Positions 8,759-57,751 are shown, counted from the first letter of the stretch. The stretch is DNA of 64,000 nt from Flavobacterium sp. (GCA_035387925.1 DAOOOV010000013.1:182-64181); one strand, 5' to 3'. The notes: generated from the letters alone by a model not told the origin. Made by a program: numbers and translations.

Positions 8759-11231
8759 TATTAAAAAATTGATCCAATGCGCTCAAATCGGTGATATTGA
8801 CATTTCGTGCTTTGCTTCCCTCAAAAGGGCCAACGATTCCGGCGGCTTCGAGTTGGTCGATCAGTCGTCCGGCGCGGTTATAACCCAATTTCAGTTTGCG
8901 TTGCAGCAATGAAGCCGAGCCTTGCTGTGAGGTCACAATAATCTCTGCGGCTTCCCTAAATAGCGCATCTCTTTCAGAAATGTCCATATCAAGATTGATG
9001 CCACTCTCGCCTTCACCAACGTATTCAGGGAGCAGGTAAGCATTGGGATACGCCTTCTGCGAACCAATAAATTCTGTAATCTTTTCTACCTCAGGTGTGT
9101 CCACAAAAGCGCATTGCACGCGGATCACATCGTTTCCGTTAGAATACAACAAATCGCCTCGCCCGATGAGTTGATCGGCACCTTGCGTGTCCAAAATCGT
9201 ACGTGAATCGATCTTAGATGTCACGCGAAAAGCAATCCTCGCCGGGAAATTCGCTTTAATAATTCCCGTAATTACGTTCACCGATGGCCGTTGCGTAGCA
9301 ATAATCAAGTGGATTCCAATCGCTCTGGCGAGCTGGGCCAAACGAGCAATCGGTGTCTCTACTTCTTTTCCTGCGGTCATGATCAAATCGGCAAACTCAT
9401 CCACGACAAGTACTATATAAGGCAGGAAACGATGCCCATTCTCGGGATTGAGTTTGCGGTTCTTGAACTTTTCGTTGTACTCCTTGATATTGCGCACCAT
9501 CGCGTCTTTGAGCAGCGAATAGCGGTCGTCCATTTCTACGCAAAGCGAATTGAGCGTATTGATGACCTTGTTGTTATCGGTAATGATCGCATCGCCAGAA
9601 TCGGGTAGCTTGGCGAGATAATGTCTTTCTATTTTATTGAACAACGTGAGCTCGACTTTTTTCGGGTCGACGAGTACGAATTTCACCTCGGCCGGATGTT
9701 TCTTGTATAGCAACGAAGTCAATACCGCATTGAGCCCAACCGATTTTCCTTGCCCGGTTGCACCAGCCATGAGTAAGTGTGGCATCTTGGCGAGATCCAC
9801 GACGAAAGTTTCGTTAGAGATGGTTTTCCCGAGTGCAATGGGCAGTTCCATTTCGGCTTCCTGGAATTTCGCGGCACCGATGACACTTTTCATTGAAACC
9901 ATCGTTGGGTTTTTGTTCGGTACTTCGATACCGATGGTTCCCTTGCCCGGAATCGGCGCGATGATACGGATTCCCAAAGCCGAAAGTGACAACGCGATAT
10001 CGTCTTCAAGGCTCTTGATTTTTGAAATTCGGATTCCCGCTTCCGGTACAATTTCATACAAAGTCACCGACGGACCTACAGTAGCCTTAATCTGGGCAAT
10101 TTCAATTTTATAATTGCGTAGTGTTTCTACGATGTTGTTCTTGTTTTCCTCGAGTTCGGCCTGGTTGATGGTAATGCCGCCGCCCGAGTATTCCTTTAAT
10201 AAGTCAAGCGTAGGGAATTTGTAATTGGACAAATCCAAAGTAGGGTCGAACAAACCGAAATCTTCAACGAGTTTGGCCGCAAGATTTTCTTCAATAATGT
10301 CTTCTTCGGGTGCTTTCTCAATCGTGAACGCATCGTCGTTGGTATGAATGACCTCTGGTTCTGCGGGTTTTATTGGCGCAATCGGCGAAAGCGCGATCGG
10401 TTTTTCCTCAATCGGCTTGTCGGTATGTAAATGAATCTCAGACGGATGTTCTATCGTTGGTTTTAACGCGTCCTTGTTGATTTCAAACTGCGAGACCGGC
10501 TTTAATTCTGGCTCTGGAAAATCCTCTTCTTCAATTTCCATTACCTCTGATTTTACGGCAAATTCTTCTAGGTTATAGGCCTTTTCGGCTTCAGTCGATG
10601 GTGCCATCATCGTTTTTACAGAGGCAAGGCTTTCGTCGATTTCACTTTTGCTTTTTTCAAAAAACGATTTGACACTGTCGGGCGACACTTTAATTTTGAA
10701 AATCAGGTAAATGATGATGCCAAAAATCAAAACGAGCAATGTTCCGGTCTTGCCGATGTAATCCTGGGCAAATTGATTCATTTCATATCCTATCGTACCA
10801 CCGAGTTCGGGTAGAGAAGTGGCAAAAAATCCAAAGAGGATTGAAATGAGTACCATCGCGAACAAGTCCCAAAACCAAATATTCTTTAATTTTTTTAACG
10901 GGATGTCAAGCGCGAGGAAAGAACCAGTCAGGAAAAACAACTTGACCAAAAGGAAAGCGGCGACGCCAAATCCGCGATAGACAAAAAAGTCGGCGAGTAT
11001 GGCACCAAATTTTCCGAGCCAGTTGTGTACTTTTTCAGATCGGGCTAAGGTTCCCAGCGCGCTTTGGTCTTCATGACCGTAAATGAAAAAGGAAATAAAA
11101 GCCACGAGCAACGCGATGGCAAACAAGATGAGCAGTGCGCCCACAAGTAATTTATGCTGTCGGGTGATTTTCCATGTTTTCTTTGCCGAAGGGGCGGTTT
11201 TAGCTGCAGTTTCCTTTGTCGTTTTTGCCAT
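8745..11231 (-). CDS. ftsK: DNA translocase FtsK
   Basis: N-terminal 4-TM domain, MPHLLMAGATGQGKS, VVDEFADLIM, HLIIATQRPS, gamma domain SASLLQRKLKLGYNRAGR. Confidence 0.97.
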   Translation of the reverse strand: MAKTTKETAAKTAPSAKKTWKITRQHKLLVGALLILFAIALLVAFISFFIYGHEDQSALGTLARSEKVHNWLGKFGAILADFFVYRGFGVAAFLLVKLFFLTGSFLALDIPLKKLKNIWFWDLFAMVLISILFGFFATSLPELGGTIGYEMNQFAQDYIGKTGTLLVLIFGIIIYLIFKIKVSPDSVKSFFEKSKSEIDESLASVKTMMAPSTEAEKAYNLEEFAVKSEVMEIEEEDFPEPELKPVSQFEINKDALKPTIEHPSEIHLHTDKPIEEKPIALSPIAPIKPAEPEVIHTNDDAFTIEKAPEEDIIEENLAAKLVEDFGLFDPTLDLSNYKFPTLDLLKEYSGGGITINQAELEENKNNIVETLRNYKIEIAQIKATVGPSVTLYEIVPEAGIRISKIKSLEDDIALSLSALGIRIIAPIPGKGTIGIEVPNKNPTMVSMKSVIGAAKFQEAEMELPIALGKTISNETFVVDLAKMPHLLMAGATGQGKSVGLNAVLTSLLYKKHPAEVKFVLVDPKKVELTLFNKIERHYLAKLPDSGDAIITDNNKVINTLNSLCVEMDDRYSLLKDAMVRNIKEYNEKFKNRKLNPENGHRFLPYIVLVVDEFADLIMTAGKEVETPIARLAQLARAIGIHLIIATQRPSVNVITGIIKANFPARIAFRVTSKIDSRTILDTQGADQLIGRGDLLYSNGNDVIRVQCAFVDTPEVEKITEFIGSQKAYPNAYLLPEYVGEGESGINLDMDISERDALFREAAEIIVTSQQGSASLLQRKLKLGYNRAGRLIDQLEAAGIVGPFEGSKARNVNITDLSALDQFFNNEQN

Positions 11232-11281
11232 CCTGAGTTGAAATAATTGCTATAAAAATAGGGAAAAAATCGGATTTTGGA

Positions 11282-14242: not shown

Positions 14243-16534
<2,292 letters not shown>

Positions 16535-25676: not shown

Positions 25677-27724
25677 AACAACAAATGAGCGAATCCCGCC
25701 AAAAATGGAGCAACATCCTGTTTGCCATTTTGACCTTCCTGACCTTTGTCGCTGCCAACGCACAGCTACTCGAACCCGTGAAATGGACTTCGAGAATCGA
25801 GAAGAAATCAGCCACCAATTTCATCCTGCACTTTGACGCCACGATAGAAAAAGATTGGCATGTGTACTCGCAGTTCACACCCGAAGGCGGCCCGCTGCCC
25901 ATGGAATTCGATTTCAAAAACAGCAAAGGGAATTACAAGCTTGTAGGCAAAGCAATCGAAGGGAAGTACAAGACTCAATACAACGAAGTATTTGAGGTGA
26001 ATGAATACTATTTTGAGTCTAAGGCGCATATCCAACAGGAAATCAGCGTGACCAACCCCAAGCTAAAAACCGTTGAGGTCGTGCTCGATTACCAGGTTTG
26101 TAAAACCTCTTGTATCAATGGCAATGAAAAGTTTAACTTTACCATACCGGCCCAGTTGCCAACCGAGGCAGCTTCTGCGCCGGTGACTCCAGAAATGACC
26201 GCAGACACCGCACAAACTACAGCCGTTCCAGAAGTGAAACCACAACCTGAAATTGTCACGGCCAACACCACCCAGGAAGCTAAAGCGCCCGAGCAAAAAC
26301 CGGCAGAAAGCAAAGGACTGCTCACCATTTTCTTCCTCGCTTTCCTTGGCGGATTTGCCGCCTTGCTCACGCCTTGCGTCTTCCCGATGATTCCGCTTAC
26401 CGTGAGTTTCTTTACCAAACAAAGCGGTACGCGCAGCAAAGGGATCGCCAATGCGCTTTTCTACGCTTTCTCAATCATCTTCATATACGTAGCACTCGGC
26501 TTGGCCGTCACCGGAATTTTTGGTGCCGAAGCCTTGAACCAACTGTCTACAAGCGTGATTTTCAACGTAGTATTCTTTGTGATTTTGGTATTTTTTGCCA
26601 TCTCTTTCCTGGGTGCTTTTGAAATCGTGTTGCCGCAATCCTGGGCCAATAAGGTAGACCAACAAGCCGGGAAATCGGGGCTGATCGCCATATTTTTCAT
26701 GGCCTTGGCGTTGGCTATCGTTTCGTTTTCGTGTACCGGACCTATTGTAGGGACATTGCTTGTAGAATCGGCGTCAAAAGGCGGTATTGCTCCGATTGTA
26801 GGTATGCTTGGATTCTCTTCGGCGATTGCGTTGCCGTTTATGTTATTCGCATTATTTCCGTCTTGGTTGAATTCTTTGCCCAAATCGGGCGGTTGGATGA
26901 ATACCGTAAAAGTCTGTTTGGGTTTCCTTGAACTTGCCCTTGCGTTTAAATTCCTGTCGAATGCCGATTTGGTGTTGCAATTGCACTTGCTTGAGCGCGA
27001 AGTATTCATCGCCATCTGGATTGCCATTTTCGGAACTTGGGCGATGTACTTACTAGGGAAAATCACACTGGCGCACGACGGGCCGCTGGGGTATATCTCA
27101 ACGGGACGTTTGCTCATGGGTGTGCTTGTACTTACGTTTACCATTTATTTGATTCCCGGAATTTGGGGCGCACCGCTCAAATTAATCAGTGCTTTCCCGC
27201 CGCCGATGGAATACAGCGAAAGTCCCTTGGGTCTTGGTGGCGAGACCGCCGCAATTGCTGAGCTGCCCGAAGGTGCCAAAAGCGGCCCGCACAGTTTGGT
27301 GGTTTTTGACGATTATGAAAAAGGACTCGCTTACGCCAAATCGGTGAACAAACCGGTCATGCTTGATTTCACTGGGTTTGCCTGTGTGAATTGCCGTAAG
27401 ATGGAGAACAACGTTTGGTCGGATGCCAAAATTTTGCCGATTTTGAGGGATGAGGTGGTTTTGATTTCGCTATATGTAGATGACAAACGCCCTTTGCCTG
27501 CGTCAGAACAAACCGTGACAAAGGATGGCGATGAGATAGAAACCATCGGTGACAAATGGACCGAATTCATGATCTCGAAATACCAGACCAATACCCAGCC
27601 GTTGTATGTTTTGATTGACCTTGAAGGCAACAACCTCAATACAGTAAAGCCAACAATCAGCTATGTCAGTGTCTCCGAATATGAGAGCTGGCTCAAGCAA
27701 GGTCTGGCCAACTTCAAGAAGTAA
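25673..27724 (+). CDS. dsbD: Protein-disulfide reductase DsbD family (N-domain, TM domain, thioredoxin domain)
   Basis: YQVCKTSC, LLTPCVFPMIP, SFSCTGP, FTGFACVNCRKME; ATG at 25673 overlaps the tilS stop. Confidence 0.93.
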   Translation: MKQQMSESRQKWSNILFAILTFLTFVAANAQLLEPVKWTSRIEKKSATNFILHFDATIEKDWHVYSQFTPEGGPLPMEFDFKNSKGNYKLVGKAIEGKYKTQYNEVFEVNEYYFESKAHIQQEISVTNPKLKTVEVVLDYQVCKTSCINGNEKFNFTIPAQLPTEAASAPVTPEMTADTAQTTAVPEVKPQPEIVTANTTQEAKAPEQKPAESKGLLTIFFLAFLGGFAALLTPCVFPMIPLTVSFFTKQSGTRSKGIANALFYAFSIIFIYVALGLAVTGIFGAEALNQLSTSVIFNVVFFVILVFFAISFLGAFEIVLPQSWANKVDQQAGKSGLIAIFFMALALAIVSFSCTGPIVGTLLVESASKGGIAPIVGMLGFSSAIALPFMLFALFPSWLNSLPKSGGWMNTVKVCLGFLELALAFKFLSNADLVLQLHLLEREVFIAIWIAIFGTWAMYLLGKITLAHDGPLGYISTGRLLMGVLVLTFTIYLIPGIWGAPLKLISAFPPPMEYSESPLGLGGETAAIAELPEGAKSGPHSLVVFDDYEKGLAYAKSVNKPVMLDFTGFACVNCRKMENNVWSDAKILPILRDEVVLISLYVDDKRPLPASEQTVTKDGDEIETIGDKWTEFMISKYQTNTQPLYVLIDLEGNNLNTVKPTISYVSVSEYESWLKQGLANFKK

Positions 27725-27726
27725 AG

Positions 27727-27756
27727 AAAATCCCAATCGAAAGGTTGGGATTTTTT
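27727..27756 (+). terminator. dsbD terminator
   Basis: AAAATCCCAA-tcgaaagg-TTGGGATTTTTT. Confidence 0.75.
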
Positions 27757-27792
27757 GTTTATTTTCATCGGGTGATTTTTTTTTGAAAAAAA

Positions 27793-27820
27793 AGGAGGGT
27801 GTTGGCACTTACAGTTGTCT
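27793..27820 (+). promoter_or_regulatory. Putative ECF-sigma promoter of the Kazal lipoprotein
   Basis: AGGGT-N14-TTGTC, identical in spacing to the motif at 52140-52167. Confidence 0.55.
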
Positions 27821-27847
27821 AAGCTAAGAATCTAAAAAATCAACGAT

Positions 27848-29287
27848 ATGAAAACCATCAAACTTTTACTTTTCTTTGCGGTGTTTGCTACCGTTACCTT
27901 TTATTCGTGTTCGGATTCTGATCCGATCGAAAACAAGACCGCGGCCATCCCGCAAAAAAGTATCGCATTGCGTACGGCAATCAACGAAATCAAGAAAGCC
28001 AACGAAATCAGTGGCAAGCCTGCCAAAGCACAAGCCAGGACAGCGACCAATCCGTTTTGTTTTAATTTTGTTTATCCGCTGACTTTGTCGTTGAGCAACA
28101 ACACCACAATCACCATTACCAGTTTCGAAGGTTTGTTGGATGTACTCGGCAGCGAATCGCCCAGTTTGTACGTGGTTGGAATCGGGTTTCCGTTCCAGGT
28201 GACCTACGGAGGCGCAGTCCACACCATAGCGACCGAAGGTCAGTTTATTGCCCTGATCCAGTATTGTGGTTTCAATACGCTCAATTTTGATTTGTCGCAA
28301 ACGGCTTGTTTTGAATTCGTGTATCCGTTGGGCATCATCGTCGCAGACGACTTGCTCGACGAAGTAAATTCGAATGAAGAATTGCAAAATTATATCAGCC
28401 AGAATAACAATTACGGCATCAATCTCGTCTATCCGGTTTCGGTCAATTATGGCGGTGAAATCGTGGTTATCAATAACATTTATGAGATGTACGAGATGAT
28501 CAACAATTGCGATGTGTGCATCTGTACTTTAGAATATGCACCGGTTTGTGTGCAAACGCCCAACGGTATTGTAGTATACAGCAATTTGTGTTTTGCTATG
28601 TGTGCGGGTTATGACCAAAATGATTTGGTATCTTGTAATCCATCTACCGATTGCAGCATCACCAACGTCCAGGTTACTCCTGGTGTTTGCAATAATGCCA
28701 CTTATGAGCTCACCATCAATTTTACTTACAACAATCCAACGGCGACCAACTTTAATGTGGTGACTGGTTCTGGTATAGTTGTGGGCAATTATAACCTGGC
28801 TGATCTACCCATTACAATCCCCAATTATCCGCTGGCCCTGACTACCGTAGATAACTTGCACATTGAAATGACCGGTGGCTGTGTTGGATATGCGTCATGG
28901 TCAACGCCTAATTGTATCTGCAACTGCCCAACGAATTTTGATCCGGTTTGTGTGCAAACGCCTACAGGACTAGTGCAATACGACAACGCTTGTTTTGCAC
29001 AATGCGCCGGGCACTCACCAAACGATTTTGTTACCTGTGGCGTAGTACCCAATAACTTTGGTACCCAATTGGGCTCTTGCTTCCAGATGAATTACCCTGT
29101 TCAGGTAATGTCAAGCGGCCAGGTCATCACGGTAAACAGCAACGGCGAATTGTTGCAATATTGGAACCCTGCGATGGGTGCCTTACCCAATATGGTCTAT
29201 CCGATAACGGTTACTTTTGGCAACCAAACGATGATCTTTGCCAATGCCGCAGCATTCCAGGCTCAGATTGCCACTTCGTGCAACTAA
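27848..29287 (+). CDS. Cys-rich lipoprotein with YP(I/V) repeats and two Kazal-type domains
   Basis: Lipobox FYSC followed by SDSD; CICTLEYAPVC...YSNLCFAMC...C and CNCPTNFDPVC...YDNACFAQC...C fit the Kazal Cys spacing. Confidence 0.78.
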   Translation: MKTIKLLLFFAVFATVTFYSCSDSDPIENKTAAIPQKSIALRTAINEIKKANEISGKPAKAQARTATNPFCFNFVYPLTLSLSNNTTITITSFEGLLDVLGSESPSLYVVGIGFPFQVTYGGAVHTIATEGQFIALIQYCGFNTLNFDLSQTACFEFVYPLGIIVADDLLDEVNSNEELQNYISQNNNYGINLVYPVSVNYGGEIVVINNIYEMYEMINNCDVCICTLEYAPVCVQTPNGIVVYSNLCFAMCAGYDQNDLVSCNPSTDCSITNVQVTPGVCNNATYELTINFTYNNPTATNFNVVTGSGIVVGNYNLADLPITIPNYPLALTTVDNLHIEMTGGCVGYASWSTPNCICNCPTNFDPVCVQTPTGLVQYDNACFAQCAGHSPNDFVTCGVVPNNFGTQLGSCFQMNYPVQVMSSGQVITVNSNGELLQYWNPAMGALPNMVYPITVTFGNQTMIFANAAAFQAQIATSCN

Positions 29288-29376
29288 AGGAATGAAAGGG
29301 AAATAAATTAGTAGTTATTTTTTATTGCCACACACACTTTGCAGAAAGGGTGTGTGGTAATAAGTTTTTATAAAGG

Positions 29377-29904
29377 ATGCATCAAAGAAACCTACAGCCT
29401 GAAACCCAATTGTGCTCAGAAAGCGTCTTCAAGACGGTTTTTGAGTCGCATTTTAAATTGCTGCGGAATTTCCTGATATTCAAATTTAAGGATGTAGAAA
29501 GGGCAGAGGATACGGCGCAAAATGCCTTTGTCGTGCTTTGGGAAAACTGTGCCATGATCAAGCCAGAACAGGCCAAAAGTTTTCTGTTCACCACCGCGAT
29601 ACGGCTCTCACTGAACCTGATTAAGCACGATAAAGTTGTCCTGAATTTTGAATTGCAATCAAAATCCAACGGCACACACCACGAATCGCCCGAGTTCCTC
29701 TTGCTGGAAAGCGAACTCAAAAAGCGACTCGAAAAAGCCATCAGCGATTTGCCCGAAAAACAGCGTACCGTATTTTTACTGAACCGGTTTGAAAACCAAT
29801 CCTATACCCAAATTGCGGCTTTGCTCGACCTGTCGGTAAAAACTGTAGAAAAAAGGATGCACCTGGCGCTCGTCTCATTGCGTCAGGTCGTCAAAAACGT
29901 TTGA
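29377..29904 (+). CDS. ECF RNA polymerase sigma factor (FecI-like)
   Basis: AEDTAQNAFVVLWEN (region 2) and LPEKQRTVFLLNRFENQSYTQIAALL..SVKTVEKRMH (region 4). Confidence 0.93.
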   Translation: MHQRNLQPETQLCSESVFKTVFESHFKLLRNFLIFKFKDVERAEDTAQNAFVVLWENCAMIKPEQAKSFLFTTAIRLSLNLIKHDKVVLNFELQSKSNGTHHESPEFLLLESELKKRLEKAISDLPEKQRTVFLLNRFENQSYTQIAALLDLSVKTVEKRMHLALVSLRQVVKNV

Positions 29905-29918
29905 CCCAAATAAATGAA

Positions 29919-30836
29919 ATGAAGATGGATAACGCAAACAATGAAAACACATTCCTGGCCGATTGGCTCGACGGTAAAATAACCGACGCCGCTTTGCGCG
30001 AGAAAGTATCGGCTGCCGATTTTGAAGCCTACCTCAAACTGAGGGAAACTTTGGGCTTGTACCAAATCGCCGATCCCGACATGGCGCAACAATACGCCAA
30101 GATAAAAGCCAAACGCATTGCCGCCAACAACGCCAAACCCGTTCGCAAAATAAGGCCTTACGTGTATTTATCGGTCGCGGCGAGCCTGTTGCTGTTTTTT
30201 GGGTTCTACCAGTTTTTCGCGTTTGCCAATCACCTGCAAACCGGTTATGGTGAAACAACTGCTTTGACGTTGGCCGATGGTTCGGTCGTGACACTCAACG
30301 CCCAATCAAAGGTAGATTATCCGCCGCTTTTCAAGTACAATCGCCAACTGCAACTCGATGGCGAGGCTTACTTTGAAGTACAGAAAGGCAGCCAATTCAC
30401 TGTTGCAACGGCGCTCGGCGAAGTAGCCGTCCTGGGTACCAAATTCAATGTCGTCGCGCAAGATGGTTTTTTTGAGGTGGTTTGCTTAGACGGGCGCGTA
30501 AAAGTCACGCACAACCGGCAATCGACGATTCTAACCAAGGGCGAAGCCGTTCGTTTTTTCAAACAAAGACAAGAAGAATGGACGCAAAATAGCAACCGCG
30601 AACCCGATTGGATCGGTGGCGAATCGACCTTTAAAAATACGCCGCTGCAGCAGGTCATCCGGCAGTTTGAAAACCAGTACCATTGTTCTGTACAATATCC
30701 CGAAGCGCTGGGCAACATCCGATTTACGGGAAGTTTTACGCACCGAAATCTTGAAACGGCTTTGCAGTCGATTTGTATCCCGTTGCAATTGCAACACACC
30801 CAAACCGGCAACCGCAAAATTTCGCTGGCGCAATGA
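29919..30836 (+). CDS. FecR family anti-sigma/sensor
   Basis: Single TM, LADGSVVTLNAQS, LDGEAYFEV, VLGTKFNV, C-terminal FTGSF; ATG at 29919 or 29925. Confidence 0.92.
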   Translation: MKMDNANNENTFLADWLDGKITDAALREKVSAADFEAYLKLRETLGLYQIADPDMAQQYAKIKAKRIAANNAKPVRKIRPYVYLSVAASLLLFFGFYQFFAFANHLQTGYGETTALTLADGSVVTLNAQSKVDYPPLFKYNRQLQLDGEAYFEVQKGSQFTVATALGEVAVLGTKFNVVAQDGFFEVVCLDGRVKVTHNRQSTILTKGEAVRFFKQRQEEWTQNSNREPDWIGGESTFKNTPLQQVIRQFENQYHCSVQYPEALGNIRFTGSFTHRNLETALQSICIPLQLQHTQTGNRKISLAQ

Positions 30837-33124
30837 TTCGGTTCTTGTCGATTTTGATGGTACTTTTGACGATTTCGGTCGGCTCGGCGCAGCAGGTTGA
30901 AACGGCTGACATTTCCTACCAGTCTGCCAATCTGAGCAAAGTGCTCGCGGATGCAGAATCGGCTTACCAAATCAAGTATTCCTACATCGACAGCATCGTG
31001 GCGCCTAAAAGCATCACGCTTGCCGCCGGTAAATACACGCCCGATTCGCTTCACAGCCAAATTGCGCAACAAAGTGGGCTTACGATTGTAAAGATCGATT
31101 CTCGTTACTATTCTGTTTACGACGATACACAAACGGTGCGGCAGGAATGGCTCAAGGAAATCCTTGTAGAAGGACTGCTTTCTAAAGGCATCAGCAAAAC
31201 CGGTGAAAAAGTGGTGATTTCCCCGCAAAAACTAGAAGCGTTGCCAGGCGTGACCGATGCCGATATTTTATTTTCGCTCCAACAGTTGCCCGGTGTGAAA
31301 AGCCCCAATGAAACAGCCAGCGGATTGCATGTGCGCGGCGGAACGTCTGACCAGAACCTGATCCTTTGGGACGGCATCCGCATGTACCATCCGGGTCATT
31401 TGTTTGGGATGATTTCTGGTTTCAATCCCAATGCTGTGGATGCGGTGCATTTTTACAACAAGGCTACCGATGCCAGATTCGGGGAACGGATTTCAAGTGT
31501 CATTGATATTAAAACCTCCGACAAAATCCCACAGCAATTCCAGGCCAATGCCGGACTAAACGCACTCAACGGAGATCTTGATGTGCGCGTTCCAATCCTA
31601 AAAGACAAATTGTCCATCGAACTCTCGGGTAGGAAATCATATACAGAGTGGCTGCAGACACCCACGTTTGACGCGTTGGCCAAAAAGGTTTTCCAGCATA
31701 CGAATTTCAAGGATTTCAACAATAGCAATCATTTTGATTTTGAGGATTATTCGGCTAAAGTCAATTACCGTCCTTTTAAAGATACCAAGATTGCATTTAC
31801 TTCAATCCTTATCGACAATTACCTTGATTTCAGTAGTGTTGCGCCAGGCGATGGGCCGCGGAACCAGAGAATGGATATTTTTAATCAGGGTTACAGCGCC
31901 AACTGGAGCCAAAAGTATGGAGCCAAATGGCGCCAGAACGTATTGCTGTATTACTCGGCTTACACCTTCAATTACCTGCGCAGGCAAGACTACACTTTGA
32001 ATCGGTTTGACGAATACGACAAGCGCAACCGCATCACCGATTCTGGGCTTGAGGCCAATTTTAACTATCGTTTCACTTCCAGCCTCCAGCTCGATTTTGG
32101 CTATCAGCATATGGGCAATGACCTTTCGCATTCGTTTACCGCACGCAATCAGGGATTTGAGATCGACCTCGACAACAAACGCCTTCTCAATGTTACCCAA
32201 GTGGGTTATCTACAGGCCAGTTACCATTGGCATCAGTGGGATTTCAGGGCTGGTGCGCGCTACAATTATTATCGCGCGTTGCAGGCCAATAGTGTCGAGC
32301 CGCGCCTGTTTGTGCAAAGACGGTTGGGCAGGCGACTCGTCTGGCAAGCCACTTACGAGAAAAAGAGCCAGATCATGAACCAAATCCGCGAAAGCGTTAC
32401 CAATGAGTTGAGCCTTGAGAATTATGTGTGGTTGCTGTCGGATGGTAAGCAGTATCCGATTCAACGCGCGAGCCAACTCAGCAGCGGGCTGATCTACAAA
32501 ACCAAGTCGTGGCTCATCGATGCTGATGCTTATTACAAACAAACCCAAGGCATCACGTCTTTGGCATTTGGGTCGCTGTACCGTTATGATACTGCCATAC
32601 GAAACGGGAAGAATTTCACCAAGGGAATTGACTTGCTGATCCAGAAGACGGCTGCAGACTGGCGCGCGTGGATCAACTATACGTATCAGGATTCGCAACA
32701 GCGATTCGATGGGTTCAATGGCGATGCTTATTTTGCGTCGAATGCCTCGATTTGGCATGCGTTTAATTTGTCGGTTTACAAAAAATGGAACAGATATGCT
32801 TTGGCTGTCGGCTGGAACTGGCATACCGGAAAACCTTACAGCGTGCTCGATGCCGATGGAAATGTGGTTTCACTCAATAAAGAGCGGCTGCCCCATTATC
32901 ATAGGTTGGATATTTCGGGAACCTATCAATTCCGGGAAGCGAAAAACTGGTCGGGGAAAATCGGGTTTTCTGTGCTCAACGCATACAACCAGCGAATCGT
33001 AATCAGCAAAGAGTATGAAAGAATTACTACAACCATCAACGAAGTACAGGATTTCAGGTACTCCGTCAGGGATTTTTATGCTTTGGGTTTTACGCCGAAC
33101 CTTTTTATTCGCGTCAACCTATAA
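30833..33124 (+). CDS. TonB-dependent receptor with N-terminal STN-like signalling domain
   Basis: Signal peptide, STN-like segment, plug LQQLPGV...VRGGTSDQNLILWDG, beta-barrel, C-terminal GFTPNLFIRVNL; ATG overlaps the fecR stop. Confidence 0.9.
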   Translation: MIRFLSILMVLLTISVGSAQQVETADISYQSANLSKVLADAESAYQIKYSYIDSIVAPKSITLAAGKYTPDSLHSQIAQQSGLTIVKIDSRYYSVYDDTQTVRQEWLKEILVEGLLSKGISKTGEKVVISPQKLEALPGVTDADILFSLQQLPGVKSPNETASGLHVRGGTSDQNLILWDGIRMYHPGHLFGMISGFNPNAVDAVHFYNKATDARFGERISSVIDIKTSDKIPQQFQANAGLNALNGDLDVRVPILKDKLSIELSGRKSYTEWLQTPTFDALAKKVFQHTNFKDFNNSNHFDFEDYSAKVNYRPFKDTKIAFTSILIDNYLDFSSVAPGDGPRNQRMDIFNQGYSANWSQKYGAKWRQNVLLYYSAYTFNYLRRQDYTLNRFDEYDKRNRITDSGLEANFNYRFTSSLQLDFGYQHMGNDLSHSFTARNQGFEIDLDNKRLLNVTQVGYLQASYHWHQWDFRAGARYNYYRALQANSVEPRLFVQRRLGRRLVWQATYEKKSQIMNQIRESVTNELSLENYVWLLSDGKQYPIQRASQLSSGLIYKTKSWLIDADAYYKQTQGITSLAFGSLYRYDTAIRNGKNFTKGIDLLIQKTAADWRAWINYTYQDSQQRFDGFNGDAYFASNASIWHAFNLSVYKKWNRYALAVGWNWHTGKPYSVLDADGNVVSLNKERLPHYHRLDISGTYQFREAKNWSGKIGFSVLNAYNQRIVISKEYERITTTINEVQDFRYSVRDFYALGFTPNLFIRVNL

Positions 33125-33161
33125 AAAAATCCTAACTTTCGGCTGGGATTCGTTTGATTAT

Positions 33162-33539
33162 TTATTTCAGGATGTGCTGGCTTAGAATGCGATACACTTC
33201 ATTGATGTTGTTGCCGCCTTTCCCGAATTGTTTCTTGATGGGCAATTCCTCGTCCTTGATCCAGATTTTGAGTTCGGCATCAAGGTCAAGCAATCCGGCG
33301 CTTTCCTTTGAGAATTTAATGACATTGCCGTAAGGTATTGACAGGTAATCGACCTTTGTTCCTACAAGTTGCTTTTCTACCAATATCAATCGTTTATTGG
33401 TGAAAATGAACATGTCCTTGATTACTTTGTAAGCTTTCTCGATATTCTCGCCATCGATGATGATGGGTTCGAATTCTTTTTTGATGTCGTCGAGGTTGAC
33501 CTCAGAGGCGTTTCCTAAAATGGCGTTGAATATTCCCAT
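33162..33539 (-). CDS. Bacterial PH domain-containing protein (bPH_1/YjqA-like)
   Basis: DMFIFTNKRLILVEKQ...DYLSIPY...ESAGLLDLDAELKIWI. Confidence 0.88.
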   Translation of the reverse strand: MGIFNAILGNASEVNLDDIKKEFEPIIIDGENIEKAYKVIKDMFIFTNKRLILVEKQLVGTKVDYLSIPYGNVIKFSKESAGLLDLDAELKIWIKDEELPIKKQFGKGGNNINEVYRILSQHILK

Positions 33540-33650
33540 GTTGATGTATAATTGGTTTGAGGTTCAAAATTAATTCAAATCGATGGGGAAGCGACAGAAA
33601 TTTTACTATTTTTAACGTATCAACTAAACGCCAATTAAAATTTCTACGCC

Positions 33651-35186
33651 ATGCTCATCAAAATCTTTGGCAGCGCCGTTTTCGGTGTCGAAGCTACCAC
33701 CATCACCATCGAAGTCAACATTGACAAAGGTATCGGGTACCACCTCGTCGGGCTCCCAGACAATGCTATCAAAGAAAGCAGTTACCGCATTGCCGCTGCG
33801 CTCAAGAACAACGGGTTTTCGATGCCCGGAAAAAAAATCACCATCAATATGGCGCCCGCCGATCTCAGAAAGGAAGGTTCGGCCTATGACTTGCCGCTCG
33901 CCATTGGTATCCTTGCCGGCTCGGGACAGATCAAATCCGATGCAGTTGCCGACTACCTCATTATGGGCGAACTCTCGCTAGACGGCAGCCTGCAGCCCAT
34001 CAAAGGCGCGCTGCCCATCGCCATCAAGGCCAAACACGAAGGATTCAAGGGATTTTTCCTGCCCATGCAGAATGCCAAGGAAGCGGCCATCGTCGCCGGA
34101 TTAGACGTTTATGGCGTCGAGAACCTGCAGGAAGTAATTTCATTTTTCGACGGCAAATCCACGATCGAGCCCTTAGTAATCGACACCCGCGCCGAATTCT
34201 ACAAAACGATTGATTGCTGCGAGAACGATTTCTCGGATGTCAAAGGGCAGGAAAGCATCAAGCGCTGTATGGAAATTGCTGCAGCGGGCGGGCACAACAT
34301 CATCTTGGTGGGGCCGCCGGGCGCCGGGAAAACCATGCTCGCCAAACGCTTGCCCGGCATATTGCCTCCCATGACGTTGCGCGAGGCGCTCGAAACCACC
34401 AAAATCCACAGCGTGGCCGGAAAATTAAAAGAAGTGGGGCTCATGAACCAACGCCCGTTTCGCAGTCCGCACCATACCATATCCAATGTCGCGCTCGTAG
34501 GCGGCGGCAGCTACCCGCAACCCGGTGAAATCTCTATGGCGCACAACGGCGTGCTGTTTCTGGATGAACTGCCCGAGTTCAAACGCGAAGTACTCGAGGT
34601 GATGCGCCAACCGCTCGAAGACCGAGAAGTCACGATTTCACGCGCCAAATTCACCGTAACTTATCCGTCGTCGTTTATGCTCGTAGCCAGCATGAACCCA
34701 AGCCCGGGCGGTTTCTTTAACGATGCCGATGCGCCGGTGACCAGTTCGCCGCACGAGATGCAACGGTATTTGAACAAAATTTCGGGGCCGTTGCTCGACC
34801 GCATCGACATTCATATAGAAGTAACGCCGGTGCCATTTGAGAAACTGTCTGATGAACGCCAGTCAGAAAACAGCGCACAAATCCGCGAAAGGGTTACCAA
34901 AGCCAGAGAAATCCAGTCCAATCGGTTTGCAGAAATGGAGTCGGTCAACTATAATGCGCAAATGGGCAGCAAATTGATCCGTGACCATTGCAGGCTCGAC
35001 ACGGTTTCACTACAATTGCTCAAAACCGCTATGGAACGGCTTAACCTGTCGGCACGTGCCTATGACAGGATTTTAAAGGTGTCCCGCACAATCGCCGACC
35101 TCGAAGGCAGTGAAAATATCGGACCCAACCACATCGGCGAGGCCATCCAATACCGCAGTCTGGATCGCGAAGGCTGGCTCGGCTGA
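33651..35186 (+). CDS. comM: YifB/ComM family Mg-chelatase-like AAA+ ATPase
   Basis: [62 protein letters not shown]. Confidence 0.93.
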
Positions 35187-47047: not shown

Positions 47048-47365
47048 ATGAATTTAGACCAAAATGATTGGCTCAGCCAACTAGAATCCGACCCAAATGC
47101 TGTCATTCTTGACGTGCGTACCCAAAGTGAATGGGAAGAAGGCATCATCCCCAACGCCATCCATATCGACATCTATAAAGGACAAGGTTTCATTTATGAA
47201 GTAGACGCGCTAGACAAGTCAAAGAATTATTACGTGTATTGCAAAGCCGGCGGACGAAGCGCCCAAGCCTGTAGTATCATGAACCAATTGGGATTTGAAA
47301 ATACCTACAATTTATTGGGCGGTATCATGGAGTGGGACGGCGAAGTGATCGCTCCCGAGTCCTGA
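47048..47365 (+). CDS. Rhodanese-like domain protein
   Basis: LDVRT..EW, YVYCKAGGRSAQAC, YNLLGGIMEW. Confidence 0.92.
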   Translation: MNLDQNDWLSQLESDPNAVILDVRTQSEWEEGIIPNAIHIDIYKGQGFIYEVDALDKSKNYYVYCKAGGRSAQACSIMNQLGFENTYNLLGGIMEWDGEVIAPES

Positions 47366-47809
47366 GCGGTCTAACGAATGTCCCCGTAATTTCCTACGGA
47401 TGGCGTAGTAAAAATACTTGAGTTGCTCTTTTCTCGATCTCCCGGCGCGAACAACGAGCGTCTTTTCACCGATAAGGCCAATCCTAACCTGATAACCATA
47501 AGACTTGTAAGAAATAGCCATGCCAAAGGCAACAGCAATCAACGCAAGCAATAGCAGCTTAAGCAGCAAATCGAGTTGCAGATCGTACACCAGCAACCAG
47601 GTAAAAACGAAGGCGGTGAGCAAGAACAGTAAGTTTAGCTCGAACCGCCTTTTTTTTATGAGGTTGATTTTCTTGATTTCGTCTATTTTGATTACACTAG
47701 AATCTTTACCATTGTGTACGACTACACGGCTATCGGACACAATCCCAATAGCGTTATTGAGGTGGTGTTTGTTGGTTTTGGTTGCGGTCATATTTGAAAT
47801 CTTTACCAT
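47312..47809 (-). CDS. Hypothetical membrane protein (two TM segments)
   Basis: 165 aa ORF with a hydrophobic hairpin; its 3' end overlaps the convergent rhodanese gene. Confidence 0.55.
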   Translation of the reverse strand: MVKISNMTATKTNKHHLNNAIGIVSDSRVVVHNGKDSSVIKIDEIKKINLIKKRRFELNLLFLLTAFVFTWLLVYDLQLDLLLKLLLLALIAVAFGMAISYKSYGYQVRIGLIGEKTLVVRAGRSRKEQLKYFYYAIRRKLRGHSLDRSGLGSDHFAVPLHDTAQ

Positions 47810-48115
47810 TTCAAATACGAGTTTGCGGATACTTTGGATTTAGCTATGGTCGATTTATTTTTTAGTAAAATCGAGGCCCAAAAATCCCCCCGAATTATTT
47901 GACCTGGCAGCAATGCTACCGGGAAAAACGCTTGTCGAAGAAAATGAGGCCGACATCACTCTGGCCGAAACGACCTGCAACAATATTATTTTTGACGCCA
48001 TCCAAGCCGACGCAGCCTAAACGCAACTGTGTTTGTTGATTGAATCCCGCAACCTCTAAAGTACTTTTTTTTAGCTCAAACTGCGACCCGATATTGCCGG
48101 GAAAGGAAGTCTGAT

Positions 48116-50623
48116 TTAAAACTGCAAACGCAGCCCCAAATTAGGGCTAAAGCCGAGTGCATAAGTGTCCACGCTTTCAATCGTATTGCGTTGTAGGTTC
48201 ACGCGATAATACCGATTCACCTGATTGTCCTGGTCTAAAAGATTCCATAGGGAAAGGCTTGTGGTCAGGGCTGTGTTCGCGTTGAAACTCCAGGACCGCG
48301 AGGCCGAAAAATTGACCTGGAAAAAATCGTTGAGCCGCGCCGAATTGGCCTCGGTATAAGATATCTTCGGGCTCGCCGGATTGACCGGATCCACAATAAT
48401 TCCTGCAGGCGGCGTATAAAGCCTGCCCGTATGCCATTTGGCGCCGAGCGCGAGTTTGAGTTTGCCGGATTCATAAGTTCCGGCCCAACCAACCGCATGC
48501 GAGATGGTGGTATTGTTAGGGAACTCGGCGGGCGAAAGGCGATCGAATCGGTACTGGTTGTTATTGAACGCGTAGGAGATCCAGGTGTAAAATTTCGGGA
48601 AACTTTTCTGCAGTAGCACTTCTGTGCCCCAAATACGGTAGTCGCCGGTTAATTCTGCGAACTCATATTGATTTTGAAAACCTTGGCTTTTGCTCGAAAT
48701 TCCTTGGTTTTTTTTATAGAAATTGTCCACAGAGAGCAACCAGCGGTTATTCGAATAAGATACACCAAATGAGAGTTGCCCGCTTTTCTGTAGCGGAATG
48801 TCGCCACCATTGGCCAAAGCCCAACGTCTTTTTTCGATACCCAAAAAGTCCTGCTGCAATTCAATGACTTGCGAGAGCGATTGGCTTTTGGCTTCGGCGA
48901 GCAGTGAAAGTGTCCAGTGTTGGGTTATTTTTTGGCTTACAGACAGCCGCGGCTCTAGCCTAAATCGTTTGATTTTTTCAAAATAATTGCCGCGCAGTCC
49001 TAATTGGAGTTGCGTTTTTTCATCGCAGCTTTTGTACTGGCTTTCGGCGACAACGGCATGCGTACGCGATAGTTGACGGTCAATGCTAGACAACGTAGGA
49101 TTGTCTATTTGACTCATGTCCTTAATCTGGATTTCATCCAATTGGTAGCCGATTGCCAACGAATATTTTTGACCCAGGACAAAACCCTCGCGAAGCTTAA
49201 ATCCTTGGTTAAAAACACGGTTTTGCTGCCTGGTTTTACGGGTATTACCAGCTTGGTTTTCAGCGTCGAGCTCGTACCACGAAAAGTAGGCCTGTAATTG
49301 GGTCTGATGGCGCTGGTTCCATTGCGATTGCCAATGCAGGCTGGAACCAAAGTTCTTTTGGGAGAGGTAACTGTTTTTTTCTAAAAATCCGCTCTGCTGG
49401 ATGAAATCTACCTGGTTCTCTAAGCCGATGCCATCAATGATGAGTTCATGTTTTTCGCCGATTTTCTGGTGGTATTGCAGCGAAAAATCATAAAAGTAAA
49501 AATCCCGGTTGGCTCCCACGGGCACAGTTTGGTCTTCATTGAGATCGGTTACGATATTGCTGCCGAAAACCCGATTTTCATATGCCTTGAATGCAGGGGT
49601 CTTGACGATGTCGGTGAAGGTACGCCGACCCGCAGCCTGTAGCGTAGAACGGTTGGAGAGCTTCACCTTTGAAAAGAAATTCGCGCTGATCATGTCTACC
49701 GCTACCGCATTGTAACAACTGTCTATCGATTGGGTATGCGACGACAGGTCTACGAGTGATGACACGCTTTCGCCGAAGAACGCCGAACTCCCGTTCTTAG
49801 AAATCCTGATTTTCGTGGTGACCATGGGGTTGAACGCAGAAATCAATCCAAAGAAATGGCTCGTCTGGAACATTCGGATGCCATTCCATAAAAAAAGGTT
49901 TTGATCGTGCGTGCCGCCGCGTACGTTGAGGTTCGACACCGTTTCGTCGATGCTCACCACGCCGGGTAATTGGTGCATGGTCTGGAGCACATCTGGCTCG
50001 GTCAAACCAGGCAATATACCAAATTTCCCTGGTTTTACTGTGACGGTTCCCGACGGACTTTTGCTGATCCCACTAGCCAGGTAGCGTTGCGTCTCGATGG
50101 TGGTGAGCTGTTGCGCAATCACTTTGAGCGCAATCTGAGGGCATTCGGGCACATACAAATCCTGCGGACTCAGTATTTTTGGCGTGTATCCTTGGTGCCG
50201 GATGCTGATGGTATTGGGTGTGAGTACCGGCAATTCAAAATAACCATTGGTGTTGGAGGCGGTTGTGATACCCAACGATGCAATGCTAATCGCGGCATGT
50301 TCAATCGGCGCACCCGTTTCGGCGTCGATGAGGTAGCCACACAAGGGCTTGTCCATTTTTTTGTCGTTGTAGACCGAGTAGTACTGCTGCGAGATTGCGG
50401 CAATCTTGAGGCGGGTGTTTTTTTGGATATACTCTAGTTTTTCCTGTAGGCCAAGTGTCGGTGCAGGCGGTAGCAATCGGTAAACGGCCAACTCTTCATC
50501 GATATAGCTAAAGCGCACGCCATGCTGCTGCGCCATCCCGCCTAGGATACTTTTTAACGGCTGGGTTTGCTGCGCCTGGCACAACAGAGAAAAAAGCAGC
50601 AATATGTACAGAAAATAGCGCAC
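48116..50623 (-). CDS. TonB-dependent receptor with STN-like and carboxypeptidase-regulatory-like N-terminal domains
   Basis: HGVRFSYIDE (STN-like), LCGYLIDAETGAPIEHA..NTNGYF, plug LPGV...VRGGTHDQNLFLWNG, C-terminal GFSPNLGLRLQF. Confidence 0.9.
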   Translation of the reverse strand: MRYFLYILLLFSLLCQAQQTQPLKSILGGMAQQHGVRFSYIDEELAVYRLLPPAPTLGLQEKLEYIQKNTRLKIAAISQQYYSVYNDKKMDKPLCGYLIDAETGAPIEHAAISIASLGITTASNTNGYFELPVLTPNTISIRHQGYTPKILSPQDLYVPECPQIALKVIAQQLTTIETQRYLASGISKSPSGTVTVKPGKFGILPGLTEPDVLQTMHQLPGVVSIDETVSNLNVRGGTHDQNLFLWNGIRMFQTSHFFGLISAFNPMVTTKIRISKNGSSAFFGESVSSLVDLSSHTQSIDSCYNAVAVDMISANFFSKVKLSNRSTLQAAGRRTFTDIVKTPAFKAYENRVFGSNIVTDLNEDQTVPVGANRDFYFYDFSLQYHQKIGEKHELIIDGIGLENQVDFIQQSGFLEKNSYLSQKNFGSSLHWQSQWNQRHQTQLQAYFSWYELDAENQAGNTRKTRQQNRVFNQGFKLREGFVLGQKYSLAIGYQLDEIQIKDMSQIDNPTLSSIDRQLSRTHAVVAESQYKSCDEKTQLQLGLRGNYFEKIKRFRLEPRLSVSQKITQHWTLSLLAEAKSQSLSQVIELQQDFLGIEKRRWALANGGDIPLQKSGQLSFGVSYSNNRWLLSVDNFYKKNQGISSKSQGFQNQYEFAELTGDYRIWGTEVLLQKSFPKFYTWISYAFNNNQYRFDRLSPAEFPNNTTISHAVGWAGTYESGKLKLALGAKWHTGRLYTPPAGIIVDPVNPASPKISYTEANSARLNDFFQVNFSASRSWSFNANTALTTSLSLWNLLDQDNQVNRYYRVNLQRNTIESVDTYALGFSPNLGLRLQF

Positions 50624-50625
50624 CC

Positions 50626-51528: not shown

Positions 51529-51572
51529 GGGGATCGTTGATTTCTTAAAGGACAAAATGATTTGTATTTACC

Positions 51573-57749: not shown

Positions 57750-57751
57750 TT

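Follow-up and report, generated by a model that had tools for sequence, protein, structure and literature searches.

Trios of an ECF sigma factor, a FecR anti-sigma factor and a TonB-dependent transducer are very numerous in Bacteroidota, and to our knowledge their outputs beyond glycan and iron uptake are mostly unknown. The closest described relatives of the locus analysed here are the FecI/FecR/FecA-type cell-surface signalling (CSS) systems, with which it shares an ECF sigma factor, a FecR with FecR_C, a receptor extension placed before the plug, and adjacent, translationally coupled genes with a putative dedicated sigma-type promoter on the targets. It differs in that the main target appears to be a multi-domain, predicted surface lipoprotein rather than a transport operon, and in that a neighbourhood survey found no ABC transporter or iron-related genes linked to its loci. 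The TonB-dependent receptor (TBDR) is also too divergent to match any solved TBDR structure by profile.

A second point of reference is provided by SusC/SusD and BtuB/BtuG, in which, as here, a lipoprotein bearing a (here predicted) lipoprotein export signal (LES) is encoded together with a TBDR and apparently regulated with it, and many PULs likewise are under ECF/anti-sigma control. Unlike those systems, the present locus has no SusD, its receptor is not of the SusC type (no CarboxypepD_reg; ~760 aa versus ~1000 aa), and the fold of its lipoprotein is unrelated to SusD or BtuG.

The lipoprotein also carries modules resembling the non-classical Kazal inhibitors (CrSPI-1 domain 2, LDTI and the Anemonia elastase inhibitor; MEROPS I1), with the same Cys spacing, PVC motif, [FY]xNxC Asn, P2 Thr/Pro and P2' Tyr, and a loop almost identical to that of CrSPI-1 domain 2. 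In contrast to those proteins, the modules are bacterial, lipid-anchored and set between dYP (defined below) and Ig-like domains; they have a hairpin three residues longer (VQTxxG versus GSDG) and their own conserved C-terminal motif, CAG[YF]TxxD[FL]VxC, and they score below Pfam thresholds. We know of the Kazal family almost only from animals, oomycetes and apicomplexans. Bacterial envelope protease inhibitors include ecotin and the Tannerella forsythia lipoprotein inhibitors miropin and the potempins. The concept of a proteinaceous inhibitor at the envelope or surface, directed against exogenous or self proteases, is common to these and the present case, which differs in being Kazal-like rather than ecotin or serpin, in its CSS/ECF control and in the lack of a cognate protease gene. 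A literature search found no published link between Kazal domains and Flavobacterium in this sense, and the pairing of a CSS trio with a dYP/Kazal-like lipoprotein appears to be previously undescribed.

Gene content and conserved linkage

The window, by which we mean the whole 64-kb stretch of DNA analysed, comes from a Flavobacterium from wastewater. The locus and its flanking elements, all on the + strand, are as follows.

27725..27756 (+): intrinsic terminator of dsbD, a 14-bp stem followed by a T-run
27794..27820 (+): conserved promoter motif of the ECF type, GGAGGGT-N14-TTGTCT, its 3' end 28 nt upstream of the ATG of the lipoprotein gene
27848..29287 (+): lipoprotein gene, 479 aa with 23 Cys
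29322..29363 (+): conserved terminator/attenuator-like hairpin, then GTTTTTAT, between the lipoprotein and sigma genes
29377..29904 (+): ECF sigma factor, 175 aa
29901..30836 (+): FecR-type anti-sigma factor, 311 aa
30833..33124 (+): TBDR, 763 aa from ATG 30833, with signal peptide, N-terminal extension, TonB-box-like LKEILVEG, Plug and barrel
~30893-31147 (+): N-terminal signalling-type extension of the TBDR, ~85 aa, or ~105 aa with the signal peptide
31211-31486 (+): Plug domain of the TBDR (Pfam)

The four co-oriented genes of the original prediction were all found as described, as same-strand ORFs occupying 27848-33124. The assignment of the second and third as an ECF sigma factor and a FecR was confirmed by Pfam: the former matched Sigma70_r2, r4_2 and Sigma70_ECF (regions 2 and 4) above the cut-off, and in NCBIfam it scored above the cut-off for TIGR02937 and below it for TIGR02985, while the latter matched FecR (3.8e-18) and FecR_C (3e-12) and has a TM segment at ~aa 85-108. 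The fecR gene overlaps the sigma stop by 4 bp. For the TBDR, two start candidates were considered (30773 and 30833), of which ATG 30833 is likelier because translation from it begins with a signal peptide and its ATG overlaps the fecR stop codon as ATGA.

The claim that this receptor bears an STN domain is supported only in part. The extension precedes the TonB-box-like LKEILVEG, and among 21 orthologous TBDRs it matched STN in four (best 0.0027) and the related FecR_C in eight (2.5e-10), but the window copy had no STN or other match in Pfam. The barrel model was matched in six of the same 21. The receptor was correctly predicted to have no SusD partner: no SusD gene was found near the four-gene locus, the next gene being a bPH gene on the opposite strand, and the receptor, which is 763 aa long, has Plug alone and matches no SusC/RagA model in NCBIfam, does not place the locus in the SusC/SusD-like class.

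Linkage in other genomes was strong. All four genes were kept together in 68 of ~74 informative genomes (~92% of informative loci), and across the 79 loci surveyed the lipoprotein family occurred in 79, the sigma factor in 69, FecR in 68 and the TBDR in 67, with any further family in at most 31. The genes share one orientation in Flavobacterium but have a divergent layout in marine genera; the linkage outlasts an inversion across genera, and it is also seen across classes. Six loci have the lipoprotein gene without an adjoining trio. No conserved protease gene was found near the 79 loci, and no reads for the locus were present in three metatranscriptomes. The linkage of the four genes is more than chance would give, and we regard them as a real functional unit that has been conserved.

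The gene dsbD, whose adjacency had been flagged as possibly coincidental, adjoins the cassette in ~25 of the 79 loci, all from a subset of Flavobacterium-like genomes. Since a strong terminator also insulates the cassette from dsbD, this adjacency is local synteny only.

Promoter motif and intergenic hairpin

In ~66 loci the lipoprotein gene is immediately preceded by a bipartite motif of the ECF type, GTAGGGT-N14-TTGTCT, which occurs once in the 64-kb window where 0.05 occurrences were expected. Where the layout is divergent, another copy stands in front of fecR-TBDR; the motif common to the lipoprotein gene and fecR-TBDR suggests that they form one regulon. The motif is degenerate at three loci, L030, L062 and L066, all lacking the trio, and in L030 the trio has been deleted and the motif lost with it. 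Induction of the lipoprotein through the adjacent sigma factor, as originally suggested, is therefore well founded on comparative grounds, given this conserved promoter motif, and the locus is very probably a functional, ECF-regulated lipoprotein/TBDR unit.

The 89-nt spacer between the lipoprotein and sigma genes has a folding energy of -25 kcal/mol as a whole, mostly from the hairpin at 29322-29363. This hairpin was present in all co-oriented loci, with compensatory changes at 13 of its 14 pairs.

Architecture of the lipoprotein

The lipoprotein has the lipidated Cys21 and 22 other Cys residues, enough for 11 disulfides, and its parts, again on the + strand, are these.

27848..27925 (+): signal peptide, lipobox Cys21 and LES-like acidic stretch C-SDSDP (NCBIfam lipoprotein signal match at aa 5-27)
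28052..28270 (+): dYP domain 1, aa 69-141, bracketed by Cys71/Cys140 (putative pair)
28301..28513 (+): dYP domain 2, aa 152-222, bracketed by Cys154/Cys221 (putative pair)
28517..28636 (+): Kazal-like module 1, aa 224-263, putative reactive loop C226-T-L228(P1)-E-Y-A-P-V-C234
28652..28903 (+): Ig-like beta-sandwich domain, aa 269-352 (AF2 model, Foldseek)
28913..29038 (+): Kazal-like module 2, aa 356-397, putative loop C360-P-T362(P1)-N-F-D-P-V-C368
29072..29284 (+): dYP domain 3, aa 409-479, bracketed by Cys411/Cys478 (putative pair)

The likeness of the acidic residues after the lipidated Cys to an export signal was borne out, SDSDP fitting the F. johnsoniae LES consensus SDDFE (PMC5080379), and S20, C21 and D23 are invariant or nearly so in the family; surface exposure is predicted on this basis. 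Six YP(I/V/L) repeats had been described. Six half-repeats are indeed present, five of them YP[LVI], but the sixth is FPF, and they pair into three mutually homologous Cys-bracketed domains. Foldseek matched the Ig-like domain to GH2 sandwich domains and the BT_0084 lipoprotein. We propose that the lipoprotein is a beads-on-a-string array of three dYP, one Ig-like and two Kazal-like domains with up to 11 disulfides.

Both profile and motif evidence mark the two Cys-rich modules as Kazal-like. A profile of 54 family modules retrieved only Kazal inhibitors from the PDB (15 of 15 matches; best 1y1c at 3.3e-4, LDTI at 1.1e-3), as did a single-sequence search (seven of seven). The prediction of two Kazal domains nevertheless fared less well against Pfam, where ten of the 54 modules matched Kazal_1 (best E 0.013) and two Kazal_2 (best 0.0063), all below the gathering score, and the two modules of the window matched neither even at E<=10. 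Across 169 modules the six Cys, PVC (P15-V16-C17) and Gly37 were invariant, the [FY]xNxC Asn (N29) was kept in 166, P2 was Pro or Thr and P2' Tyr or Phe. The spacing, C-x-C-x7-C-x13-C-x3-C-x10-C, equals that of LDTI except for a three-residue insertion in the hairpin, as judged from profile alignments; a hairpin and a helix are predicted.

Whether these modules inhibit proteases is a separate matter. P1 is hypervariable (T/D/Q/A/E/L), with Lys and Arg absent among the residues tallied; Thr, Asp and Gln, which are common here, are weak P1 residues for many serine proteases. Proteins with Kazal-like folds that are not inhibitory include follistatin, agrin and OATP, and fold-search matches to the modules included OATP1C1. 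Subtilisin is inhibited by CrSPI-1 domain 2 with a Ki of 2.5 nM, and Kazal domains with acidic P1 target subtilisins (PMC3082530); the loop of CrSPI-1 domain 2 (CTEEYDPVCV) comes very close to the consensus of the family, C-[TP]-x-[ED]-Y-[DA]-P-V-C-V. Modules have been gained, lost and multiplied, from none to six per protein, in tandem runs of up to six as in multi-headed inhibitors, and some close relatives have lost one. From these sequence features we put true inhibition at somewhat short of an even chance; its target would probably be subtilisin-type serine proteases.

The dYP domain, a ~70-aa Cys-bracketed unit of two CFxFxYP-type half-repeats, defines a superfamily recognised in this analysis on lipoproteins, and has no relative in Pfam or the PDB. 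The three copies of the window scored E 1e-24 to 4e-28 against a local HMM, and a profile search at E<=1e-3 retrieved at least 1,799 clusters (50% identity) of Bacteroidota lipoproteins, mostly built of 3-9 dYP domains. Among the best 146 representatives, 132 were Kazal-free, and in four of five informative Kazal-free contexts a homologous trio was present (43-45% identity for the sigma factor, E values as low as 1e-120 for the TBDR) together with the same promoter motif. Kazal can thus no longer stand as the defining feature: it is dYP that the trio keeps as its partner. Because most of the superfamily lacks Kazal modules and some close relatives have lost one, inhibition cannot be the core function, and the protease capture or sensing first suggested as the basis of the system would be at best the specialisation of one sub-branch. 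We propose that receptors of this family were ancestrally partnered with the dYP array and that the Kazal-like modules were inserted later in one sub-branch.

These contexts also bear on two other explanations. In one, the lipoprotein gene has nothing to do with the CSS trio, and its Kazal-like motifs are Cys patterns that arose by chance, a view that could draw on the want of a Pfam-significant Kazal match and on the six trio-less loci. We consider it scarcely credible and effectively refuted by the linkage across inversion and classes, the common promoter motif, the uniformly Kazal PDB profile matches and the Kazal-free trio contexts. In the other, which we judge very unlikely, a periplasm-facing lipoprotein damps its own induction, its Kazal modules inhibiting a FecR-degrading serine protease (a Prc/CtpA-type site-1 protease). 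CSS anti-sigma factors of the FecR/FoxR type are processed by periplasmic serine proteases, and the promoter motif marks the lipoprotein gene as the presumed direct ECF target, both of which would suit such feedback. However, exposure at the surface is what the LES-like residues following Cys21 predict, a stoichiometric regulator would hardly need as many as six Kazal modules in tandem together with Ig domains, and Kazal-free homologues are wired alike, so Kazal-based feedback could not be general.

A proposed signalling module and its significance

The explanation that we favour overall, with somewhat better than even confidence, is a self-contained CSS module that has the surface lipoprotein as its output and probably also as its working partner. 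An extracellular cue would be sensed by the TBDR, whose N-terminal extension would signal to FecR in the inner membrane, and the ECF sigma factor thereby set free would transcribe the lipoprotein gene from its presumed cognate promoter, GTAGGGT-N14-TTGTCT. The hairpin 3' of that gene would let only a fraction of transcripts reach sigma-fecR-TBDR, giving positive feedback; in the divergent layout the second promoter copy would drive fecR-TBDR directly. The acidic export signal would have the lipoprotein flipped to the cell surface, where it may form a complex with the receptor and where the likeliest role of the displayed Kazal-like modules would be canonical, substrate-like inhibition of serine proteases of the subtilisin type.

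The lipoprotein might instead serve nutrition. As the receptor's surface substrate-binding partner (compare SusD, BtuG, HmuY and TbpB), the dYP protein would support ligand import that induces itself through CSS, and the Kazal-like modules would be rigid, disulfide-knotted binding or spacer elements without inhibitory activity. The conservation of dYP rather than Kazal beside the trio, the dispensability of Kazal modules within the family, the single regulon and a variable repeat number typical of surface binding arrays all speak for this, and surface lipoprotein/TBDR pairs are common in Bacteroidota (PMC6143338). On the other hand, the Kazal modules keep the residues that stabilise a canonical loop (Asn 166/169, P2 Thr/Pro, P2' Tyr) and multiply in tandem as in multi-headed inhibitors, while dYP matches no known ligand-binding fold. 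We regard ligand capture with non-inhibitory modules as possible but rather unlikely; its reading of the dYP part is compatible with the CSS module that we favour.

What the analysis defines is one complete portable unit of promoter, target, attenuator, sigma factor, anti-sigma factor and receptor, with a predicted sigma-binding motif that is directly testable. The target belongs to a lipoprotein superfamily that has not been described before and comprises at least 1,799 clusters (50% identity), and dYP is a candidate new domain family. A bolder and, in our estimate, improbable version is a protease-sensing defence circuit, in which the Kazal/dYP lipoprotein would capture subtilisin-type proteases of competitors or predators in sludge and freshwater, and the TonB-dependent transducer would read either the lipoprotein in its loaded state or something that the encounter produces, and so call for more inhibitor through FecR and the ECF sigma factor; the dYP/ECF/FecR/TBDR unit would then more broadly be a widespread, undescribed class of Bacteroidota surface sensor-effectors with exchangeable 'warheads'. 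If true, this would be the first case of an inducible anti-protease system under the control of cell-surface signalling. The Kazal-bearing sub-branch would add a bacterial, lipid-anchored, multi-headed inhibitor to the Kazal family, and, if its modules inhibit subtilases, would point to regulated protease protection in dense communities such as activated sludge.

Gene content, transcription signals and conservation of the cassette

Four genes of one orientation occupied the 27.7-33.2 kb region of the window, with the lipoprotein gene preceding a trio of ECF sigma factor, FecR and TonB-dependent receptor (TBDR) genes. Together with two intergenic signals, they were as follows:

27794-27820, ECF-type promoter motif, ending 28 nt before the lipoprotein ATG
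27848-29287, lipoprotein gene, 479 aa
29322-29363, hairpin, followed by GTTTTTAT
29377-29904, ECF sigma factor gene (Sigma70_r2, r4_2 and Sigma70_ECF in Pfam)
29901-30836, FecR-family anti-sigma factor gene (FecR 3.8e-18, FecR_C 3e-12)
30833-33124, TBDR gene (Plug 7e-8), start most likely at ATG 30833

The signal peptide that results from ATG 30833, and its 4-bp overlap with the fecR stop, made it the likeliest TBDR start. The next gene encoded a bacterial PH-domain protein on the opposite strand and the cassette therefore lacks a SusD partner, as had been predicted. A search of the TBDR profile against the PDB gave no match at E<=0.01. The nearest genome was that of Flavobacterium sp. UBA7665 (L001), whose lipoprotein shared 90% protein identity, and near-identical DNA was carried by activated-sludge and wastewater metagenomes; three wastewater metatranscriptomes, sampled at ~1%, yielded 0 reads on the cassette locus. 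A second, different trio (48116-52166, minus strand; ECF sigma 197 aa, FecR 313 aa, TBDR 840 aa with CarboxypepD_reg and Plug) was flanked by small ORFs without a Pfam match (47312-47839, minus; 52355-52846, plus) and was not adjoined by any gene for a Kazal module or for dYP, our name for a ~70-aa Cys-bracketed domain of two YP-type half-repeats. Ordinary housekeeping neighbours in the window included genes for FtsK (8745-11249, minus), a catalase-peroxidase-like protein (14243-16534, minus), a P-type cation ATPase with an N-terminal metal-binding domain (55086-57554, plus) and a fused cbb3-type oxidase CcoN/CcoO (57716-59941, plus).

Conservation of the neighbourhood was surveyed by scanning one genome per species, which found 174 relatives, 79 of whose loci were fetched, and tblastn and ORF clustering served to count how often each gene family occurred. 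Of the 79 loci, all had the lipoprotein family, 69 the sigma, 68 the FecR and 67 the receptor family, and every other family was present in 31 or fewer; the ORF families of these loci included no conserved protease or other fifth gene. Five loci without the trio were cut by contig ends, and the four-gene linkage, whose conservation the original prediction had left to be checked, held in ~68 of 74 informative loci. Flavobacterium loci had the order lipoprotein-sigma-fecR-TBDR on a single strand, and the species carrying the cassette included Flavobacterium caeni (L021), F. longum (L005), F. lotistagni (L007) and F. sedimenticola (L031). Winogradskyella, Aureisphaera, Ulvibacter, Psychroserpens and further marine genera had an inverted trio, whose start lay ~145 bp upstream from the lipoprotein gene. 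That the linkage outlasts this inversion is strong evidence that lipoprotein and trio are functionally coupled, and coincidental adjacency is an unlikely explanation. The upstream gene dsbD was rejected as a functional partner, given the strong terminator that follows it (14-bp stem, 27725-27756) and the presence of pabB-tilS-dsbD in only about 25 of the 79 loci, all a subset of the Flavobacterium-like ones. The cassette was also present in unrelated contexts. The earlier caution that this adjacency might be coincidental was justified: it is local synteny.

When the 110 nt preceding the lipoprotein start codon were aligned, a bipartite ECF-type motif emerged, [AG][TG]AGGGT-N13/14-(G)TTGTCT[TA]A. 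Across 1.27 Mb (window and loci, both strands), a regular-expression scan placed a single copy per locus there in about 66 loci and almost none elsewhere. The 64-kb window had one copy where 0.05 were expected. Many divergent loci had a second copy, on the opposite strand and between the sigma stop codon and the beginning of fecR, which would drive fecR-TBDR in these loci. The motif had decayed to TTAGGAT...ATTATAT in L030, a locus without the trio, was retained in its near relative L010, and was absent from L062 and L066, which are trio-less too. This distribution, and the loss of the motif with the trio, are what one would expect from the inferred recognition of the motif by the adjacent sigma factor.

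Locus L030 (7800-9600) carried a natural sigma-fecR-TBDR deletion that placed a Mg-chelatase-like gene directly after the lipoprotein gene; the lipoprotein ORF was intact and its post-Cys residues were altered to CDNSNG. In three marine Flavobacteriaceae loci (L055, L057, L059), whose lipoproteins have 2-3 Kazal modules and 2 Ig-like ones, no sigma, FecR or TBDR gene was found within about 5-8 kb of the lipoprotein gene; the matching trio may be encoded at another place in these genomes. These lipoprotein genes retained a GTAGGGT...TTGTTT motif.

A strong hairpin separated the lipoprotein stop codon from the start of the sigma gene in every co-oriented locus. The entire 89-nt spacer of the window cassette folded at -25 kcal/mol, and compensatory double changes were found in 13 of the 14 stem pairs (26 sequences); no Rfam family matched within 27000-34000. 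With the sigma ATG no more than ~15 nt further on, there is no room for a separate promoter, and the simplest reading of the sequence is that the hairpin would act as a terminator or attenuator. Such an element could set a high ratio of lipoprotein to sigma, FecR and receptor while permitting read-through for positive feedback. The stem may also, alongside this role, be a protein-binding palindrome. A CCACA...TGTGG core was common to hairpin stems in many lineages.

Lipoprotein architecture and its Cys-rich modules

An AlphaFold2 model built from 32 homologues (mean pLDDT 78), combined with internal alignment, divided the lipoprotein into the following parts, the Cys pairings being inferred:

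Cys21, lipidated residue after signal peptide and lipobox, then an acidic SDSDP stretch
Cys71/Cys140, bracketing dYP1
Cys154/Cys221, bracketing dYP2
aa 224-263, Kazal-like module 1
aa 269-352, Ig-like beta-sandwich
aa 356-397, Kazal-like module 2
Cys411/Cys478, bracketing dYP3

The six YP repeats of the original prediction were all present and are recast here as six half-repeats, two in each of three ~70-aa domains that are homologous to one another; every half-repeat is modelled as a beta-hairpin and a helix. Besides the lipidated Cys there were 22 others (23 in total), sufficient for 11 disulfides. Foldseek with the whole lipoprotein model returned the Ig-like sandwich only. The residues following Cys21 agreed with the lipoprotein export signal of F. 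johnsoniae, SDDFE at +2 to +6 (PMC5080379), a likeness already noted in the original prediction, and the lipoprotein is therefore plausibly exposed at the cell surface; a role as a periplasmic feedback inhibitor is unlikely. Past the lipid anchor lay a strongly conserved helix (aa 36-50, nt 27953-27997), KSIALRTAINEIKKA, with S38 and R42 invariant. As a superfamily-wide docking motif, this KSIALRT helix was rejected, since it occurred in only 17 of 141 dYP representatives, all from the sub-branch with Kazal modules.

The assignment of the two Cys-rich segments as Kazal domains was supported by profile matches and loop signature and failed at the curated HMM threshold. Pfam gave no Kazal match to the window lipoprotein or its isolated modules, and matched 12 of 54 family modules, all below threshold. 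All matches in PDB searches with a single sequence (7/7) and with a profile (15/15) were short, non-classical Kazal inhibitors, among them the Anemonia elastase inhibitor (E 3.3e-4), CrSPI-1, LDTI, greglin, infestin, rhodniin and dipetalin, and the top full-length TM matches in Foldseek were Kazal domains. Across 169 modules from 79 genomes, six Cys, a Pro-Val-Cys and a Gly were invariant, and the "spacer" Asn of [FY]-x-Asn-x-Cys was kept in 166. The putative inhibitory loop had Pro/Thr at P2, mainly Glu/Asp at P1' and Tyr/Phe at P2', and the P1-equivalent column was among the most variable (T, D, Q, A, E, L), with Lys/Arg absent among the tallied residues. Given the PDB matches and this conserved signature, we treat the modules as divergent, putatively canonical-loop bacterial Kazal-like domains, which resemble the non-classical animal inhibitors yet fall below the curated HMM threshold.

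Loop 1 of the window modules read C-T-L-E-Y-A-P-V-C, the P3-P2' sequence of the third domain of turkey ovomucoid. In the family as a whole, the consensus C-[TP]-x-[ED]-Y-[DA]-P-V-C-V was almost the same as the loop of CrSPI-1 domain 2 (CTEEYDPVCV, P1 Glu), which inhibits subtilisin with a Ki of 2.5 nM, and Kazal domains with an acidic P1 are subtilisin-directed (PMC3082530). Most plausibly, the modules would be aimed at subtilisin-type proteases. A family-specific C-terminal motif, C-A-G-[YF]-T-x-x-D-[FL]-V-x-C (profile positions 36-46; Gly in 167 of the 168 modules with a residue there, Asp in 146 of 169), had no counterpart in the aligned animal Kazal sequences and might form another functional surface. 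In the literature searched, Kazal domains were not found linked to Flavobacterium or Bacteroidota lipoproteins.

The dYP superfamily

Some close relatives of the lipoprotein lacked module 1 or module 2, and marine members had up to six Kazal modules in tandem and 0-3 Ig-like domains. Exhaustive searching by HMMER, using the dYP profile, returned 1,799 clusters at E<=1e-3 (1,125 at E<=1e-10), showing that an empty word-indexed profile search had been a sensitivity artefact. Among the top 146 clusters, 135 had a lipobox-like N-terminus, the usual architectures were four, five or three tandem dYP domains (maximum nine), and Kazal modules were present in only 14. Hosts included Lewinella (Saprospiria) and Pseudotenacibaculum, and source annotations said nothing beyond "hypothetical protein" or "Lipoprotein". 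Comparison with Pfam and PDB sequences found no relatives of dYP, and its derivation from a degenerate Kazal domain was rejected (hhalign probability 0.5%).

Genomic context was sampled for six Kazal-free dYP representatives, one of which lay on a contig too short to be informative. Three (L082, L085, L086) had a divergent sigma-FecR-Plug-receptor trio immediately upstream; in L083/L084 the sigma gene adjoined the lipoprotein gene and fecR-TBDR lay ~5 kb away beyond an inserted methyltransferase gene; no trio was found near L081. These trios shared 43-45% (sigma) and 25-33% (FecR) identity with that of the window cassette, their receptors aligned over the full length at 25-33% identity (E down to 1e-120), and they were clearly nearer to the window trio than was a second, unrelated ECF/FecR pair of L082. 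A GTAGGGT...TGT(C/T)T motif preceded each Kazal-free lipoprotein gene and fecR, including the displaced fecR of L083/L084. With homologous trios and a shared motif at Kazal-free dYP genes, the ancient unit is a dYP lipoprotein with ECF sigma, FecR and receptor, and the Kazal modules are an accessory gained by one sub-branch. The L083/L084 insert (8711-10207) encoded an Eco57I/MmeI-like N6-adenine methyltransferase, and a gene for a large T9SS-tailed M4 metalloprotease lay just past the fecR-TBDR pair.

Proposed working and comparison with known systems

In FecIRA-type cell-surface signalling, information passes from receptor to FecR to sigma factor. By this logic, the receptor would detect an extracellular cue, the sigma factor would then transcribe the lipoprotein gene and fecR-TBDR (by read-through or from a second promoter), and the lipoprotein would arrive at the cell surface. 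There it would probably cooperate with the receptor, given their common regulon and joint inheritance across classes, and the dYP array would be the conserved part that forms the interface or binds the ligand. In the window sub-branch the array would also display a pair of Kazal-like heads, with Leu (L228) and Thr (T362) as their P1 residues, most likely inhibitors of the subtilisin/chymotrypsin/elastase type. The main rival account, that the lipoprotein is a mere substrate-capture partner of a transporter with non-inhibitory Kazal modules, is less likely yet plausible, and agrees with the dYP part of this proposal.

The trio works like FecIRA-type signalling systems and largely qualifies as one, HMM recognition of an STN domain in the window receptor being the sole weak point; the cassette does not qualify as a Sus-like PUL. 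Each component class is already known. To our knowledge, the combination is new: a cell-surface signalling trio devoted to one putative surface lipoprotein, whose domain family is undescribed, with a defined promoter motif and a putative attenuator, and with Kazal-like heads in one branch.
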